This document shows positions 24,704 through 32,602 of a stretch of 64,000 nt of DNA, one piece after another (positions within the stretch are counted from its first letter, which is position 1; the number at the start of each line of letters is the position of its first letter). The stretch covers positions 2,542-66,541 of the forward strand of contig CACXAT010000010.1 of assembly GCA_902765725.1 (NCBI GenBank). The letters run 5' to 3'. The notes below the pieces were generated by a model. It was not told where the DNA came from and ran no database searches. It worked only from the letters and a program-made list of their open reading frames with translations. Position numbers and translations under genes: made by a program. The DNA is from an uncultured Lachnospiraceae bacterium. Lineage in GTDB: Bacteria > Bacillota > Clostridia > Lachnospirales > Lachnospiraceae.

Positions 24704-25222
24704 TTGGCAATGGCCGGTCTGAAGATGAATTACTGCATGCAGTGCGGCGCGAAGCTTACCACAAGACACCTGGATCTGGAAGGGGAGGTCCCTTACTGTG
24801 AGACCTGCGGGGAATTCCGTTTTCCGGTCTTCAGCACCGCGGTCAGCATGATCGTGACGACCAGGGAGCGGGACAAGATCCTCCTGATCAAGCAGTACGG
24901 CAGGGACAGCTACATCCTTGTGGCAGGCTACGTCAACAAAGGAGAGGATGCCGAGGACGCCGTGGTGCGCGAGGTCAGAGAAGAGATGGGGCTTAAGGTC
25001 ACGGAGGTTCATTTCAACCACAGCCGGTATTTTGAGCCCTCCAACGTACTCATGCTGAACTTCACAGCCATCGTGGAAGACACCAGAGTGCACGAGAACC
25101 GGGAGATCGATTCCTACCGCTGGTTTACGCCTCAGGAGGCCCGGGAGAACGTCAGATGGCCGAGCCTTGCGGGAGATTTCCTTGACGGATACCTCACGGG
25201 GGATTATCATTTTACGAAATAA
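24704..25222 (+). CDS. NUDIX hydrolase with N-terminal zinc ribbon (NudC-like)
   Basis: CMQC...CETC; Nudix box GYVNKGEDAEDAVVREVREEMG. The start could be ATG 24725. Confidence 0.85.
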   Translation: MAMAGLKMNYCMQCGAKLTTRHLDLEGEVPYCETCGEFRFPVFSTAVSMIVTTRERDKILLIKQYGRDSYILVAGYVNKGEDAEDAVVREVREEMGLKVTEVHFNHSRYFEPSNVLMLNFTAIVEDTRVHENREIDSYRWFTPQEARENVRWPSLAGDFLDGYLTGDYHFTK

Positions 25223-25246
25223 GTATTTAGGAAGTATACTATCAGA

Positions 25247-26164
25247 ATGAATTACAGAACTAGACGGATTCTGCTCATCGTGCTTGTGAGCATCCTCCTT
25301 GTGGTCACGATCCTGTTCATGTGCCTGCTGATCTTTGACAAGGATCTGGAGCCTGTGCTCTCGAAGCTGCGCGAGACAGAGGCAGTGACGGAAGTGGTCG
25401 CAGAGACAGAAGCGCCGCAGACCGAGGCGGCGACAGAGGCCGAGCCTGTGACAGAGATCCAGACGGAAGCGGAGACAGAGGATCCTCTGATCGCTCAGAT
25501 GAACTCCATCTACACCTTCTCACAGGGTCCGGTCGCCTGGGAGCGGAAGACCCCTTACTCCGGGGAATGGTGTGAATATGAGATGGAGGGCGGTAGATTC
25601 AGCGTATTTGGCTGCGGCCTGTGTGCCCTGGCCAACATCTACAGCTCACTGACGCCCTATGAATGCTCGCCAGTGGCCATGTACAGGTATGCCATGCAGG
25701 CCTCGGACTATTCGCCGAGCTGGGGCTACGGAGCCATCGACTGGCCCTATATGGGGCAGACCCTGAGGAGTCTGGGGTTCAAGGTATCGTTCCGCAAGAA
25801 GGATCTGAACTATGAGACCTTCCGCAGGGCATACAGGAATTCCCTCACGGCCATCGTGCTGGTCAGCAGCGAGGAGGACGACACCTACTGGCAGGATACC
25901 CCGGGCCACTATGTAAACCCGTGGCTGTATGATGAGGAGCGCGACATGGTCTTCCTGGGAGATTCGGGCAACCCGGACCACAACCGTTCCTGGGTCCCGC
26001 TGCGCTATCTCTACGATGCCATGGCCCACGACAGCTCGTATCAGTACATGCTGGTTCGCTCCTACGATGAGGACCGGAACACCTGGAAGTATTCCGGGAT
26101 CGAGGAAAAATGCACCTTCCCCGCGTTCTACATGCCCAAGAGCGTCCAGGAGACGGAGAGCTGA
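25247..26164 (+). CDS. Membrane-anchored C39-like cysteine peptidase with acidic Thr-rich linker
   Basis: N-terminal TM, TEA-rich linker, GCGLCALA (Cys), GHYV (His), GDSG (Asp). Confidence 0.65.
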   Translation: MNYRTRRILLIVLVSILLVVTILFMCLLIFDKDLEPVLSKLRETEAVTEVVAETEAPQTEAATEAEPVTEIQTEAETEDPLIAQMNSIYTFSQGPVAWERKTPYSGEWCEYEMEGGRFSVFGCGLCALANIYSSLTPYECSPVAMYRYAMQASDYSPSWGYGAIDWPYMGQTLRSLGFKVSFRKKDLNYETFRRAYRNSLTAIVLVSSEEDDTYWQDTPGHYVNPWLYDEERDMVFLGDSGNPDHNRSWVPLRYLYDAMAHDSSYQYMLVRSYDEDRNTWKYSGIEEKCTFPAFYMPKSVQETES

Positions 26165-26234
26165 GGGACGGAAGGCAACTGGGAGCCGGAAGACGCCCGG
26201 GAGCCGTATAAAACCGAATACTGTGAATGAAGAG

Positions 26235-26290
26235 AGGACAATGATGTCGGCAATGGATCATTTCTAGACGTCATTGTCCTTTTATTTTTC
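26235..26290 (+). promoter_or_regulatory. Leader terminator overlapped by an ANTAR-type hairpin upstream of murT
   Basis: AGGACAATGATGTC (26235-48) pairs with GACGTCATTGTCCT (26267-80), followed by TTTATTTTT. The 5' arm itself folds as GAC-[AATGAT]-GTC. Confidence 0.65.
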
Positions 26291-26340
26291 TCTGCAGCCT
26301 CTGCAGGTGGAAACAGTGGAATCATAAGAAGGATAAGATT

Positions 26341-27750
26341 ATGAAACTGCGAAGCATATGCGCCATCGCTGCATGTAAACTGACTAGGCAGGCTCTGCGG
26401 CTGCTGCACCGGGGCGGCACGGCCCTTCCGGGCAAGGCGGCGCTCCTCTTTGACCCGAAGATCCTGGAGAAGGTGAGCGCGGGCATGGAGATCATAGTCG
26501 TCACGGGGACGAACGGCAAGACCACGACCTGCGGCATGCTGGAAGGCGCACTGCGCGATGCCGGGCGGCCCTGCCTGTCCAATAAGTCCGGTGCCAACCT
26601 GCTGTCCGGCGTGACCGCCGAGCTGACCTGCAACACCACCTGGAGCGGGAAGCCGAAGACTCGTTATGCGGTGATCGAATGCGATGAGGGCGCCCTGAAG
26701 CAGGTGGTGCCCCTGATCCGTCCGAAGGTGATCGTCGTGACCAACCTGTTCCGCGACCAGCTGGACCGCTATGGGGAGGTCATGCACACTCTGGAGGAGA
26801 TCCGCACCGGCGTTCTGCGGTCTCCCGGCAGCATCCTGTGTCTGAACGCGGACGATTCCCTGACCGGGTCGCTGGCCCTGGACGTACCAAATCCTGTGGT
26901 CCGGTACGGGTTCGACATCCCCACTGGAGAACAGAAGGATCCTGCTCTGTCGGACGCCAGGTACTGCATCCGCTGCGGCGCGCCATACAGCTACCACTAT
27001 CACACCTATGCCCACCTGGGCGGATTCTACTGTCCGAAGTGCGGCTACAGCAGGCCGCAGGCAGATGCCGCAGTGACGAAGATCCTGAAAATGAACCAGG
27101 ACGGGACCTGCTGCCGTGTCCGCCTGCCCGAAGACGGCTGGACGCCCGGTACAGGCCAGGGCTGCGCGGATTCGTATGAGATGGAGATTACCGTAGGGCT
27201 TCCCGCGGTGTACAACCTGTACAATGCCATGGCCGCTGTCTGCGCCTGCGCCGCTTTCGGGCTGAGTGCGAAGGAGAGTGCCCTGTCCCTGAAGGCAGTG
27301 CACAGCAGCTTCGGAAGGATGGAGACCTTCACTGTGGGGAAGACCTCCCTGCAGATGATCCTGGTGAAGAACCCGGCAGGCTGCACCCAGGCGCTGGAAT
27401 ATCTGGCTTCGGCCGAGAAGCCCTGCAGGGTGCTGCTCTGCCTCAATGACCGGACGGCGGACGGGCACGACATCTCCTGGATCTGGGACGCGGATTATGA
27501 AAAGATCTGCAAGGATCCGGGCCTTACCGAGATCGTGGTATCCGGCGACCGGGCGGAGGACATGCAGCTGCGCCTCAAATACGCGGGGGCGGATACCGGC
27601 CGCATACGGCTGATCCGGGAGATGAAGGAGGCTGTGAGCTGGATCGAAGCCTCCCGGACACCGGTCTATGCCCTTCCCAACTACACCTCGATGCTGGAGC
27701 TTCGGGAGGCGGTCAGGGAGAGGACAGGAGCCAGTGAATTCTGGCAGTAA
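26341..27750 (+). CDS. murT: Lipid II isoglutaminyl synthase subunit MurT
   Basis: GTNGKTTT, GANLLSG, NLFRDQLDRYGE, zinc motif CIRC..CPKC, KNPAG, DGHDISWIWD, PNYTSML. Confidence 0.9.
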   Translation: MKLRSICAIAACKLTRQALRLLHRGGTALPGKAALLFDPKILEKVSAGMEIIVVTGTNGKTTTCGMLEGALRDAGRPCLSNKSGANLLSGVTAELTCNTTWSGKPKTRYAVIECDEGALKQVVPLIRPKVIVVTNLFRDQLDRYGEVMHTLEEIRTGVLRSPGSILCLNADDSLTGSLALDVPNPVVRYGFDIPTGEQKDPALSDARYCIRCGAPYSYHYHTYAHLGGFYCPKCGYSRPQADAAVTKILKMNQDGTCCRVRLPEDGWTPGTGQGCADSYEMEITVGLPAVYNLYNAMAAVCACAAFGLSAKESALSLKAVHSSFGRMETFTVGKTSLQMILVKNPAGCTQALEYLASAEKPCRVLLCLNDRTADGHDISWIWDADYEKICKDPGLTEIVVSGDRAEDMQLRLKYAGADTGRIRLIREMKEAVSWIEASRTPVYALPNYTSMLELREAVRERTGASEFWQ

Positions 27751-27789: not shown

Positions 27790-28542
27790 ATGGGCATGGA
27801 GCTGAAGATCTGCCACCTCTACCCGGAGGTGCTGAACCTGTACGGGGACAGAGGCAATATACTGTGCATGAAGAGGCGCCTTGAGGCGCGCGGCATCTCC
27901 TGCAGCGTGACCCTGGCAGGGATCGGAGACAATCCGGACCTGACACAGTTTGACCTGTTTTTCATCGGGGGAGGACAGGACTTTGAGCAGGAGGTCCTTC
28001 TGGACGACCTTCGGGGCGGCAAGGGGGATTCGATCCGCAGCGCGGTCCTGGACGGGAAGACCTTCCTGTGCATCTGCGGCGGCTACCAGATGATGGGCCA
28101 TTATTACCAGACCCATGACGGGGTGAAATGTGAATTCCTTGGCGCGGTGGACCTGCATACGGTGGGCGGCAGGAAGCGGATGATCGACAACTATGCATAT
28201 GTACTGGGAGAAGAATCAGGCGGCAGCACAGTTGTCGGCTTCGAGAACCACAGCGGCAGAACTTATCTGGGAGAGGGGGTGCAGCCTCTGGGCAGGGTCC
28301 TGAAGGGCTGCGGCAATAACGGTGAGGACGGAACCGAGGGCGTCCGCTTCCGCAATCTGTTCGGGACCTACAGCCACGGGCCGGTCCTTCCCAAGAACCC
28401 GCAGTTTGCCGACGAGATAATAAAAACCGCGCTGCAGTACAAGTACGACAGCGCGGATCTGGAACCGCTTGATGACAGTATGGAGATGCAGGCCCACAGC
28501 AGAGTCCTGAGACACTATTTACACCTGAGTGAATCTGTCTGA
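27790..28542 (+). CDS. gatD: CobQ-like glutamine amidotransferase GatD
   Basis: NLYGDRGN, GGGQD, ICGGYQ (Cys), GFENHSG, YSHGPVLPKNP; directly follows murT. Confidence 0.9.
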   Translation: MGMELKICHLYPEVLNLYGDRGNILCMKRRLEARGISCSVTLAGIGDNPDLTQFDLFFIGGGQDFEQEVLLDDLRGGKGDSIRSAVLDGKTFLCICGGYQMMGHYYQTHDGVKCEFLGAVDLHTVGGRKRMIDNYAYVLGEESGGSTVVGFENHSGRTYLGEGVQPLGRVLKGCGNNGEDGTEGVRFRNLFGTYSHGPVLPKNPQFADEIIKTALQYKYDSADLEPLDDSMEMQAHSRVLRHYLHLSESV

Positions 28543-28554
28543 AGTCTTCGCAGG

Positions 28555-30138
28555 TTACACTCCGCTGTCCCCGTAGTTGGACAGGACTCTGGCGGAGGGA
28601 TCATTTACATCACAGCCTTCCCACTCCCGGTTCGGCATCCAGAAGTCTGCAACCATCTCCGACTGCCCCGGATAGTATTTCTCGAAGATATCGCGGTAGA
28701 GCAGGGATTCTTTCGTGAAGGGCTGCGCGTGGGTATAGCGCGCGCGGCCTTCCTCGAAGGCTTCGTCCGAATACATCGACTCAGCGTAGTCCTGAAGGTC
28801 ATCGCGCAGGGAGTGTCCCACCGCGTCCGAGAAGGCGGCCTTCTCGCGCATCAGGATGCTGAAGGGGATAAGGTCGTCCTTTTCAAATGCGTGGCGCAGC
28901 AGGTATTTTCCGATCCCGTAGGTATTCATCTTCTTTGCAGGATCGATATGCATGACATAGTCCACAAAGTCCAGATCGCCGAAGGGAACTCTCGCCTCAA
29001 GAGAGTGAACAGAGATACTGCGGTCGGCCCTCAGCACATCATACATGTGGATCTCACGGATCCTCTTCTGAGCCTCCTTCTGGAAAGCTTCCGCGTCCGG
29101 GGCAAAATCCGTATATTTATAGCCAAACAGCTCATCCGAGATCTCGCCGGTCAGGATGACGCGAAGGTCTGTGTTCTCGTGGATCCATTTGCAGACCAGA
29201 TACATGCCAATGGAGGCCCGGATCGTGGTAATGTCGTAGGTGCCGAGGGCGTAGATGACCGGCTCCAGCGCATTGATCACATCGTCACGGTTTATGATGA
29301 CCTCATGGTGATTGCTGTGGATATACTCCGCGACCTGCCTTGCGTATTTCAGGTCGATGGCGTCCACATCCATTCCGATGGCAAATGTCTCCAGAGGCCT
29401 GCCTTGCATCTTCGCCGCCGCGCCGCATACCAGGGACGAATCCAGGCCGCCGGACAGCAGGAAGCCGATGGGCGCGTCCGCGTCCAGACGCTTGGCGATG
29501 CCCCGCAGAAGGCGGTCATGGATCTGGCGGGAGATCTCGTCCAGGTCATCCTCCAGATAATACTGCGCCTGTGAAGGATCGTGGTAGCAGATGAACTCCC
29601 CGTCCCTGTAGTAGTGTCCGGGCGGGAATGGGCGTATCTTCCCGCAGACCGGCACCAGCATCTTGGGCTCGGAGGCAAATACGATCGAGCCGTCTTTGTC
29701 ATATCCGTAGTACAGCGGCCGGATCCCGATGGGATCGCGCGCCGCGATAAATGAATCCGCTCCGGCATCGTACAGGACCAGGGCAAACTCCGCGTCCAGA
29801 AGGGAAAACATGCTGCACCCAAGCCGTTCATACAGGGGAAGCAGGATCTCGCAGTCACTGCCGCTCTCAAAGCGGTATCCCAGGGAGATCAGATATTCCT
29901 TCAGAGGGCGGAAACCATACAGCTCTCCGTTGCAGACGCAGGCATTGCCATTTCTGAAGAAAGGCTGCATCCCGGCCTCGGACAGTCCCATGATCGACAG
30001 ACGGCCGAACCCGAGCACGCCGCCCTTCACCCGGGCCGTCCTGGACATATCCGGTCCGCGGGAAGCGGCGATATCCAGAAGCTCCCGGCAGGTGTCCTCT
30101 GAAATCTTACTGCTGCAATACCCCAATACCGTACACAT
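28555..30138 (-). CDS. asnB: Asparagine synthase (glutamine-hydrolysing)
   Basis: N-terminal Cys2, RGPD, NGELY, ARDPIGIRPLY, LLSGGLDSS, TGEISDELFG, EARVPF, REKAAFSD. Confidence 0.93.
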   Translation of the reverse strand: MCTVLGYCSSKISEDTCRELLDIAASRGPDMSRTARVKGGVLGFGRLSIMGLSEAGMQPFFRNGNACVCNGELYGFRPLKEYLISLGYRFESGSDCEILLPLYERLGCSMFSLLDAEFALVLYDAGADSFIAARDPIGIRPLYYGYDKDGSIVFASEPKMLVPVCGKIRPFPPGHYYRDGEFICYHDPSQAQYYLEDDLDEISRQIHDRLLRGIAKRLDADAPIGFLLSGGLDSSLVCGAAAKMQGRPLETFAIGMDVDAIDLKYARQVAEYIHSNHHEVIINRDDVINALEPVIYALGTYDITTIRASIGMYLVCKWIHENTDLRVILTGEISDELFGYKYTDFAPDAEAFQKEAQKRIREIHMYDVLRADRSISVHSLEARVPFGDLDFVDYVMHIDPAKKMNTYGIGKYLLRHAFEKDDLIPFSILMREKAAFSDAVGHSLRDDLQDYAESMYSDEAFEEGRARYTHAQPFTKESLLYRDIFEKYYPGQSEMVADFWMPNREWEGCDVNDPSARVLSNYGDSGV

Positions 30139-30169
30139 AGATATCCCTCCTGTTTCTGTATCCGGATAT

Positions 30170-30213
30170 AAAAAGGGACGCAGACTCCGGCACAGCCGGA
30201 CGCCCTTGTCCCC
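30170..30213 (-). promoter_or_regulatory. asnB leader: ANTAR-type hairpin overlapping an intrinsic terminator
   Basis: Minus strand GGAC-[AAGGGC]-GTCC (plus-strand 30198-30211), then CCGGC-TGT-GCCGG and GCGTCCC-TTTTTAT. Confidence 0.6.
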
Positions 30214-30355: not shown

Positions 30356-30363
30356 GGAGAAAT

Positions 30364-30440
30364 AAAGCAAAGGCGCTTTGAAGGAGCCGCCCCGGGGAAC
30401 ACCCGGGAGACGGTTTCGCTCAGAGGCCTTTTTTGTTTTT
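30364..30440 (+). promoter_or_regulatory. glnA leader: ANTAR-type hairpin overlapping a long intrinsic terminator
   Basis: AAAGC-[AAAGGC]-GCTTT (30364-79). Alternative stem AAAGGC/CTTTGA/GGAGCCG/CCCGGG pairs with CCCGGG/CGGTTTC/TCAGAG/GCCTTT, followed by TTTGTTTTT. Confidence 0.7.
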
Positions 30441-30493
30441 CTGGTCCTGCCGGCCCGGCCGGTCAGGAGGATGCAGCAGAAGGAGGAACTATT

Positions 30494-32602
30494 ATGAAGA
30501 AGGCTACATCGATTCCGGACATGTACGGCAGTCTTGTTTTCAGCGACAGAGTCATGCGGGAGCGTCTGCCCAAGGATATCTATAAGGCAGTTCATAAAAC
30601 GATCCAGAATGGAACACATCTGGAACTGGATGTGGCCAATTCTGTAGCGGCAGTCATGAAAGAGTGGGCGATCGAGAACGGCGCGACTCATTTCACACAC
30701 TGGTTCCAGCCGATGACCGGTCTGACCGCGGAGAAGCATGACAGCTTCATCGCCCCGGAGGGAGACGGCACGATCATCATGGAATTCTCCGGCAGGGAGC
30801 TGGTCAAGGGAGAACCGGACGCCTCCAGCTTTCCCTCCGGCGGCCTGAGAGCCACCTTCGAGGCCAGGGGCTATACCGCGTGGGATCCCTCTTCACCGGC
30901 ATTTATCAAGGATGGCTCCCTGTATATCCCGACCGCGTTCCTGTCCTACGGAGGAGAGGCGCTGGATAAGAAGACCCCGCTCCTTCGTTCCATGGAAGCG
31001 CTGAGCAGACAGGCTGTGAGAGTCCTGCAGCTTCTGGGAGAGAAGGACGTTACCCGGGTGACCACGACCATCGGATCGGAGCAGGAGTATTTCCTGATCG
31101 ACAAGGAGATGTACCTTGCCAGGAAGGACCTGCTGCTGTGCGGAAGGACCCTGCTTGGCGCCCCGGCGCCCAAAGGCCAGGAGATGGAGGATCATTACTT
31201 CGGTGTTCTGAAGCCGAGAGTATCTGAGTTCATGCATGAGCTGGATGAAGAGCTCTGGAAGCTGGGGATCCCGGTCAAGACCAAGCACAATGAGGTCGCC
31301 CCGTCCCAGCACGAGCTGGCACCGGTCTTTGAGACCGCCAATGTCGCGGTCGACCACAACCAGCTGACCATGGAGACCATGAAGAAGGTTGCCGACAGGC
31401 ATGGTTTCGCATGCCTGCTCCACGAGAAGCCCTTCGACGGTGTCAACGGCTCGGGCAAGCACAACAACTGGTCGATCCAGACCAACACGGGAGTCAACCT
31501 CCTGAACCCGGGCAGGCATCCGGGCGAGAACCTGGTCTTCCTGACCTTCCTGGTATCCGTGATCGCGGCAGTTGATAAATATGCAGATCTTCTCAGAGTC
31601 TCCGTCGCGTCTGCCGGCAATGATCACCGTCTGGGCGCAAATGAGGCTCCGCCTGCCATCATTTCCATATTCCTGGGAGATGAGCTCACGGCAGTTCTTG
31701 ATTCCATGGAACACGGCGAGACCTTCGAGAGTGCCGGAAAACAGCAGATGGGAACCGGCGCCCAGGTCCTGCCGCACATCACAAAGGATACGACAGACCG
31801 CAACAGAACCTCGCCCTTCGCATTTACCGGCAACAAGTTTGAGTTCCGCATGCCCGGCTCGGCCCTGTCTGTGGCAAACCCGAACATCGTTCTGAACACG
31901 GCGGTGGCGGACACGCTGTCTGACCTGTACGACGAGCTGGCGCAGATTCCGGAGGAAGAGCGGACGCAGAGACTTCCCGGCCTGCTGCGCAGCCTTCTGA
32001 AGCAGCACAAGAGGGTGCTCTTCAATGGAAACGGCTACACCGACGAGTGGATCGAAGAGGCACACAGAAGAGGACTTGACGATCTGAGAGCGCTTCCGGA
32101 TGCCATGCCCAGATGGATCAGCGACAAGAGCGTCGCTCTGTTCACAAAGCATCAGGTGCTGACGAAGGAAGAACTGTTCTCCCGGTACGAGATGGTCCTT
32201 GAGAATTATTACAAGGCGATCCATATCGAGGCGCTGACGCTGCAGGAGATGGTCCGCAAGGACTTCATCCAGGGCCTGGTCTCCTATACGAAGGACCTGG
32301 CGCAGGAAGCGTCCCTCAAGAGAAGCCTTCTTCCGCAGGCCGCCTGCAGCCTGGAAGAAAAGATCCTTGAAGGTCTGGAGGCAGACGGCGTCCAGATCGC
32401 GCAGGCCCTCGACACCCTGCACACAGACATCCGGACTGCGGAGAAGATTGAAGGTGCGCAGGAGAGCGCGGAGTACTATGAGCGCACCGTCCTGAAGGAT
32501 ATGGAGCAGCTCCGGGCAGCTGTAGACCATGCAGAGGAGCGGATCCCGGACAGCTATCTGCCCTATCCGACCTACAGCAAGATCCTGTTCTCGACGCTGT
32601 AA
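30494..32602 (+). CDS. glnA: Glutamine synthetase type III
   Basis: [73 protein letters not shown]; ATG 30494 follows AGGAGG. Confidence 0.95.

Follow-up and report, generated by a model that had tools for sequence, protein, structure and literature searches.

A candidate single-hairpin, ANTAR-type attenuator ahead of murT-gatD and of other glutamine and ammonium genes in an uncultured rumen Lachnospiraceae bacterium

The murT-gatD pair amidates the stem peptide of peptidoglycan and thereby affects cross-linking and surface charge, while glmS serves amino-sugar supply. Does the terminator that lies in front of murT-gatD in an uncultured Lachnospiraceae bacterium simply end the transcript of the preceding gene, or is it a switch that an ANTAR-type RNA-binding protein could set according to nitrogen status, as an initial annotation of this DNA had proposed? 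The locus lies in a 64,000-nt stretch (the window, G000:C10:2542-66541) of a 2.5-Mb genome of 54% G+C, here called G000. The MurT loci nearest to that of the window belong to uncultured rumen Lachnospiraceae MAGs.

Five genes follow one another at this locus: a gene for a 305-residue protein (25247-26164, plus strand), murT (26341-27750, plus strand), gatD (27790-28542, plus strand), asnB (28555-30138, minus strand) and the type III glutamine synthetase gene glnA (plus strand, 30494-32602, its true start being placed at 30494). Domain matches identify the asnB product as a glutamine-hydrolysing asparagine synthase. The murT product carries a Mur-ligase middle domain and a MurT C-terminal domain (Pfam Mur_ligase_M and MurT_C) and its gene is followed, after 39 nt, by that of a GATase_3 glutaminase (Pfam), as expected of a MurT-GatD pair. 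The NCBIfam equivalog scores of both proteins are below the cut-offs (314 bits against 800 for MurT, 204 against 400 for GatD); membership of the MurT and GatD families holds, and we infer from the sequences that the exact function is that of a lipid II isoglutaminyl synthase. The 305-residue protein carries a membrane anchor at its N terminus, gives a weak papain-like/phytochelatin-synthase match and may be a cell-wall enzyme; its gene directly precedes murT in all four close genomes, and promoter-like sites are found before it at 25182-25240.

A second MurT-like gene is present at C26:25962-27137 (L115; 54-56% identical; relatives' loci L113, L114 and L098-L100), behind a conserved TTGACA-17-TATGGT promoter. 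No gatD follows this type of murT in the relatives; in G012, where one neighbour was checked, it is followed by a GNAT acetyltransferase gene. The idea that the window carries a spare, nitrogen-specific pair beside a housekeeping pair was rejected, since the C26-type murT has no adjoining gatD in relatives and G000 has one gatD. The window holds the only gatD homolog of the genome, and the pair under study is therefore its only complete amidotransferase, with no spare copy. Glutamine synthetase is duplicated: a second type III enzyme, 54% identical to the window copy, is encoded at C4:38512-40602, and also in G009 and G015.

The leader of murT reads GGAC (26236-26239), AATGAT (26240-26245), GTC (26246-26248), an 18-nt loop, GACGTCATTGTCC (26267-26279) and TTTTATTTTT (26280-26289). 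Two structures can form from it. One is the hairpin GAC-AATGAT-GTC (26237-26248, plus strand), a candidate antiterminator whose hexaloop has A1, A2 and G4 and is closed by a C-G pair, just as the initial annotation had described it. The other is an intrinsic terminator (26236-26279, plus strand) in which GGACAATGATGTC pairs with GACGTCATTGTCC over 13 bp around the 18-nt loop, directly followed by the U-tract TTTTATTTTT (26280-26289, plus strand, from sequence reading). All 12 nucleotides of the hexaloop hairpin fall within the 13-nt 5' arm of the terminator and the two folds are mutually exclusive; this part of the proposal is borne out, except that the stem had been counted as 14 bp. The whole leader folds at -60.6 kcal/mol (RNAfold; z = -4.4 against shuffled sequences), the terminator hairpin being its main element. 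Taken alone, the terminator has -26.6 kcal/mol versus -3.0 kcal/mol for the hexaloop hairpin, so the small hairpin would win only if held by something. Just past the U-tract, a further small hairpin, CTGCAG-CCT-CTGCAG, is seen at 26292-26306, and its TCTGCAGG core is common to G009.

The same motif and layout had been reported before asnB and glnA, and this holds; amtB and glmS, which lie elsewhere in the genome, have it as well. The asnB site, GGAC-AAGGGC-GTCC (30211-30198, minus strand), lies in a leader spanning 30165-30213 where it overlaps a terminator followed by TTTTTAT. The glnA site, TAAAGC-AAAGGC-GCTTTG (30363-30380, plus strand), overlaps a terminator of -40 kcal/mol in a leader spanning 30360-30442 and is followed by TTTTTTGTTTTT. 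On contig C23, AGC-AAAGGC-GCT stands behind a TTGACA-17-TTAAAA promoter ahead of a gene (C23:795-2585) whose 597-residue product is an ammonium transporter fused to a C-terminal PII-like domain (amtB-PII), and on contig C17 the glmS site TGAC-AAAGGC-GTCA stands behind TTTACA-17-TATAAT. The products of all five transcription units (murT-gatD, asnB, glnA, amtB-PII and glmS) make, import or spend glutamine or ammonium.

How often such an arrangement arises by chance was gauged by counting every hexaloop hairpin of the genome that shares bases with the 5' arm of a strong terminator. Of these approximately 780 hairpins, 57 have A1/G4 loops, which are no commoner than loops with other letter pairs. 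A bare A1/G4 hexaloop in a terminator arm is thus not significant in this genome, and significance rests on the gene set and on the comparison with relatives. The specific form, defined by a C-G closing pair, an AANGNN loop and terminator overlap in a promoter-proximal leader, has five sites in G000. Other candidates were set aside. The hairpin CGC-AAAGGC-GCG on the minus strand of C23 (15487) does not overlap its terminator; it lies upstream of a gene for a GPH-family transporter, about 35 nt ahead of a thioredoxin gene's terminator, and may be a chance occurrence or a non-attenuator ANTAR site. At position 29983 of the plus strand of C15, the supposed terminator is merely a weak, G-U one.

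Canonical ANTAR targets contain two hairpins, and none of the five sites does. The sequence GGC-AATGGA-TC (26249-26259), which had been put forward as an imperfect second hairpin at murT, forms no standard pairs, and no second A1/G4 hairpin was detected within -60/+70 nt at murT, glnA, asnB, glmS or amtB, even with 2-bp stems. In the glnA leader, the -10 box leaves no space for a P1 hairpin. Genome-wide, dual hairpins with C-G closing pairs and a T-tract number two, neither near nitrogen genes; an apparent dual hairpin at C2:255045-255060 was discarded as lying within the rnfC coding sequence. Known RNA families do not account for these leaders either. Rfam gave no match at gathering score in the window and, for the asnB and glnA leaders, none even at E values up to 10, which rules out a known riboswitch, a T-box or a glutamine riboswitch; at E<=10 the murT leader matched only the XIST A repeat and the snoRNA sR52, both attributed to chance.

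To what extent the murT arrangement is kept was seen from its orthologs. The leader reads ATGAC-AATGAT-GTCAT in G009 (MurT 80% identical) and GTGAC-AAGGGT-GTCAT in G018 (MurT 74% identical), each followed by a terminator, and hairpin and terminator are thus both retained in these relatives. Terminator pairing is kept at 12 of 12 positions across the three orthologs (36 of 36 cells paired), with two compensatory changes, and together with the stable stem and the direct U-tract this marks the element as an intrinsic terminator. Loop positions 3 and 5 vary (AATGAT versus AAGGGT) and are matched in the 3' arm of the terminator, while A1, A2 and G4 are constant. The stem of the small hairpin is invariant in the three orthologs, so that covariation neither supports nor contradicts it. 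In G018, the 12-nt core of the murT site, GACAAGGGTGTC, is letter for letter that of the asnB site of G009 and G018.

These leaders also bear on the claim that murT has no promoter of its own past 26290. In G018, about 25 nt separate the U-tract from the murT ATG, a gap too short for a promoter, so that murT would be reached by read-through there. In G000 the claim stands less firmly, as a weak extended -10 candidate, TGGAATCAT, is found at about 26316, 3' of the terminator. Upstream of the hairpin, TATAAA (26207-26212, plus strand) is a possible leader -10 box, weak and with no clear -35; AT-rich, -10-like boxes are likewise found 10-25 nt before the murT hairpin of G009 and G018.

Outside these close relatives, the AAAGGC form with a terminator and its own promoter precedes murT-gatD in 3 of 72 other murT loci (L052, from a Blautia-labelled MAG, L058 and L064). 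Between the hexaloop/terminator and murT, L058 (2650-2850) and L064 (2790-2990) contain 4-5 tandem units of about 22 nt, GGTCATAGYCGYTTTTTTCA, each ending in a T-run; these units resemble repeated terminator-like modules. Many genomes of the genus, the family and the order have a single hairpin with a terminator ahead of glnA, amtB or glmS. Every one of about 25 instances has A1, G4 and a C-G closing pair, and the loop consensus is AANGGY, from which the murT loop AATGAT deviates at position 5; it is also able to close to a tetraloop. The amtB leader of G008 (L166) has two tandem attenuator modules, of which the first has G rather than A at position 1 of its loop (GAAGGC); the loop of the second is AAAGGC.

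No ANTAR gene had been seen in the window, and a genome-wide search for an ANTAR-domain regulator had been advised. Profile searches with PF03861 returned exactly one match in G000, on contig C15 (C15:28750-28881; 53.6 bits against a cut-off of 27.3), a count to be read with the 94.7% completeness of this MAG, from which a second ANTAR gene could be absent; the compared genomes are likewise MAGs. The corresponding 60-residue open reading frame (C15:28701-28881; L001:1483-1665, minus strand) has a strong ribosome-binding site and is flanked by a LysR gene and a YgiQ-type radical-SAM gene. Its product is the ANTAR domain alone, with no sensor, coiled coil or dimerisation part, and it aligns only to residues 145-189 of EutV, 369-412 of NasR and 154-196 of Rv1626, the three-helix part of ANTAR. 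A lysine equivalent to Lys149 of EutV is kept, and a histidine takes the place of the EutV tyrosine that stacks on G4 of the loop (PMC8934654). The gene is also present in G018 and in G009; that of G009 has the same LysR/radical-SAM place and encodes a protein identical over its last 46 residues. Such proteins form 11 clusters among 5.8 billion sequences, 8 of the 11 being of exactly 60 residues, and relatives carry ANTAR forms of 182-210 residues.

The distribution of this mini-ANTAR gene parallels that of the leaders. G015 is the next relative (MurT 75% and glutamine synthetase 84% identical), and its LysR/radical-SAM locus has a 137-nt gap without an ANTAR gene, its sole ANTAR protein being a receiver-ANTAR protein beside a kinase. 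In this genome, murT abuts the upstream gene, whose stop codon overlaps the murT start (translational coupling), and the terminator is absent; the element is missing from the leaders of asnB and glnA, and the leaders of glmS and amtB retain recognisable but broken remnants. As read from the sequences, this is one evolutionary event, which appears to have taken the mini-ANTAR gene together with all five switches, lost or degraded. In G033 and G035, an ANTAR gene directly adjoins a motif-bearing glnA or glmS. No ANTAR gene was found in G030, a relative of the same order, where glmS is under the classical glmS ribozyme (RF00234; L159:3356-3504). This ribozyme controls the same gene but is a metabolite-activated, self-cleaving RNA, in contrast to the hexaloop/terminator switch found, with no ribozyme, in the glmS leaders of G000, G009, G018 and G033 (relatives' loci L149-L151 and L161).

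How do these elements compare with studied ANTAR systems? AmiR and NasT are ANTAR proteins sequestered by a partner protein, AmiC and NasS respectively, that controls them. They provide a precedent for a separate signal protein, which a 60-residue ANTAR protein devoid of a sensor would need, but AmiR and NasT keep an N-terminal domain and a coiled coil. The eut targets of EutV/EutW in Enterococcus faecalis, with the consensus AGCAANGRRGCUY, overlap the 5' base of terminators (Fox 2009; PMC3369931). The amtB and glnA sites match this consensus at 12 of 13 positions and the murT site at 7 of 13, keeping the C-G pair, A1, A2, G4 and R5. The murT hairpin has the A1, the G4, the stem of at least 3 bp and the overlap with the 5' base of the terminator by which Ramesh 2012 recognised such sites; the two tandem hairpins of that description are found at none of the five. 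Like those of the EutV/EutW system, the sites here place an A1/G4 hexaloop, closed by a C-G pair, at the 5' base of a terminator, and they occur between operon genes as well as in leaders. The differences are that eut sites have two hairpins joined by a linker (5-12 nt) whereas there is one here, that EutV has a receiver, a coiled coil and an ANTAR domain and works with a kinase whereas the candidate regulator is a bare 60-residue domain with neither signal-input domain nor coiled coil, and that the targets are glutamine and ammonium genes rather than ethanolamine genes. It should be noted that, in both EutV studies, antitermination required a pair of hairpins at the proper spacing; the smallest unit that ANTAR binds is one hexaloop, and a monomeric EutV ANTAR construct bound RNA without antitermination in vitro (PMC8934654).

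The regulons predicted for Clostridia in Table S2 of Ramesh 2012 contain glutamine synthetase, ammonium transporter, PII and asparagine synthase genes, often beside an ANTAR gene, and more generally ANTAR regulons are mostly nitrogen-related (PMC3369931). The present set shares with that catalogue the glnA, amt and asnB themes, the adjoining ANTAR genes (G033, G035) and the logic of attenuation; it differs in that the catalogue derives from a dual-hairpin model and all hairpins here are single. The supplementary tables of Ramesh 2012 have no entry for a Mur ligase, peptidoglycan, cell wall, ligase or glucosamine, and murT-gatD and glmS are thus absent from them. In the open-access literature we found no report of ANTAR or nitrogen control of murT-gatD, in keeping with the novelty first ascribed to it, nor of nitrogen or ANTAR control of glmS or of a single-hairpin ANTAR regulon in Lachnospiraceae.

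Could the element do no more than terminate the upstream gene, its hairpin being coincidental, and could murT-gatD owe its expression to a promoter of its own or to constitutive leakage? Its start 71 nt past a same-strand gene, the 57 A1/G4 hexaloops that chance places in terminator arms, the lack of covariation in the hexaloop stem and TGGAATCAT as a possible extended -10 would all suit such a reading. It would leave unexplained why G018 has no promoter space, why its 12-nt core is identical to an asnB site, why the AAAGGC form recurs ahead of murT-gatD in other lineages and why the element is missing in G015, which has no mini-ANTAR gene and where the upstream gene runs straight into murT; we regard it as quite improbable. 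The attenuator could instead be real and belong to the same nitrogen/glutamine regulon, yet be read by a non-ANTAR protein, or through a direct RNA-metabolite or RNA-RNA interaction. That the sole ANTAR protein has neither the dimerisation part nor the sensor part needed by the studied ANTAR regulators, that the hairpin is single and that histidine replaces the aromatic residue stacking on G4 in EutV argue for this alternative, which is nevertheless unlikely in view of the resemblance of the sites to the eut ANTAR consensus (12/13 for amtB and glnA, 7/13 for murT), the joint loss of the mini-ANTAR gene and the five attenuators in G015 and the ANTAR genes that G033 and G035 have next to motif-bearing glnA or glmS; there is no Rfam family match, and a hairpin of 18-20 nt is too small for a metabolite pocket.

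The cue or the direction of the response might also differ, a real ANTAR switch answering a signal other than nitrogen or reading through under nitrogen excess. The sensor-less regulator and a neighbouring LysR regulator of unassigned specificity are compatible with this, but every unit of the set (glnA, amtB-PII, asnB, glmS and murT-gatD) deals with ammonium or glutamine and ANTAR regulons are mostly nitrogen-related (PMC3369931), and we hold such a cue or direction to be very improbable.

Taken together, these results make it probable that the murT element is a single-hairpin, ANTAR-type nitrogen/glutamine attenuator. The element at 26236-26289 would be more than the mere end of the upstream gene. 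Transcription would enter from the promoter of that gene or from the weak leader promoter and, by default, the 13-bp terminator would form and transcripts would stop before murT-gatD, at 26280-26290. An RNA-binding protein, most likely the single ANTAR protein of the genome, the 60-residue bare domain encoded on contig C15, would capture the hexaloop hairpin within the 5' arm of the terminator; the captured hairpin would tie up 12 of the 13 nucleotides of this arm, the terminator would be blocked and the polymerase would continue into murT-gatD. The glnA, asnB, amtB-PII, glmS and murT-gatD units would form one glutamine/ammonium regulon. Its inclusion of glnA and amtB points to nitrogen (glutamine) limitation as the likeliest condition for read-through, a response that would raise the three glutamine-dependent amidotransferases serving envelope and amino-acid synthesis, MurT/GatD, GlmS and AsnB, when their substrate is scarce.

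In favour of this attenuator are the layout shared by five leaders, the 12/13 consensus matches, the compensation among orthologs, the short G018 gap, the recurrence of AAAGGC, the co-loss in G015, the adjacency in G033 and G035, the ribozyme of G030, the hexaloop as a binding unit and the conservation of the mini-ANTAR protein. On the other side stand the single hairpin, a 60-residue protein without a coiled coil, the 7/13 match at murT, a co-loss that is a single event, generic loops that are not enriched and the possible TGGAATCAT -10. Of the proposal made in the initial annotation, the mutually exclusive hairpin and terminator and the nitrogen-related gene set have thus held, the latter extended to five genes, and the genome does encode an ANTAR protein; the dual hairpin did not hold, and the ANTAR protein is one without a sensor. 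We advance more tentatively, as a possibility rather than an expectation, that this sensor-less protein acts on single hexaloops together with a glutamine-reporting partner (e.g. PII or glutamine synthetase) and co-regulates glutamine synthesis and ammonium uptake with MurT/GatD, GlmS and AsnB, and that in this lineage the switch replaced the glmS ribozyme.

For Clostridia, a 2012 prediction already placed glutamine synthetase and ammonium transporters under ANTAR control; murT-gatD and glmS are targets beyond that catalogue and beyond the papers searched. If the proposal is true, one hairpin and a bare 60-residue ANTAR protein suffice, which bears on the need for two hairpins and a dimer, and the minimal switch, if functional, would give structural and synthetic studies a very compact system. 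G015, without the mini-ANTAR gene and without intact switches, is a natural control for comparison. On the more tentative reading with a glutamine-reporting partner, these uncultured rumen Lachnospiraceae would adjust the amidation of peptidoglycan and the supply of amino sugars to the availability of glutamine.
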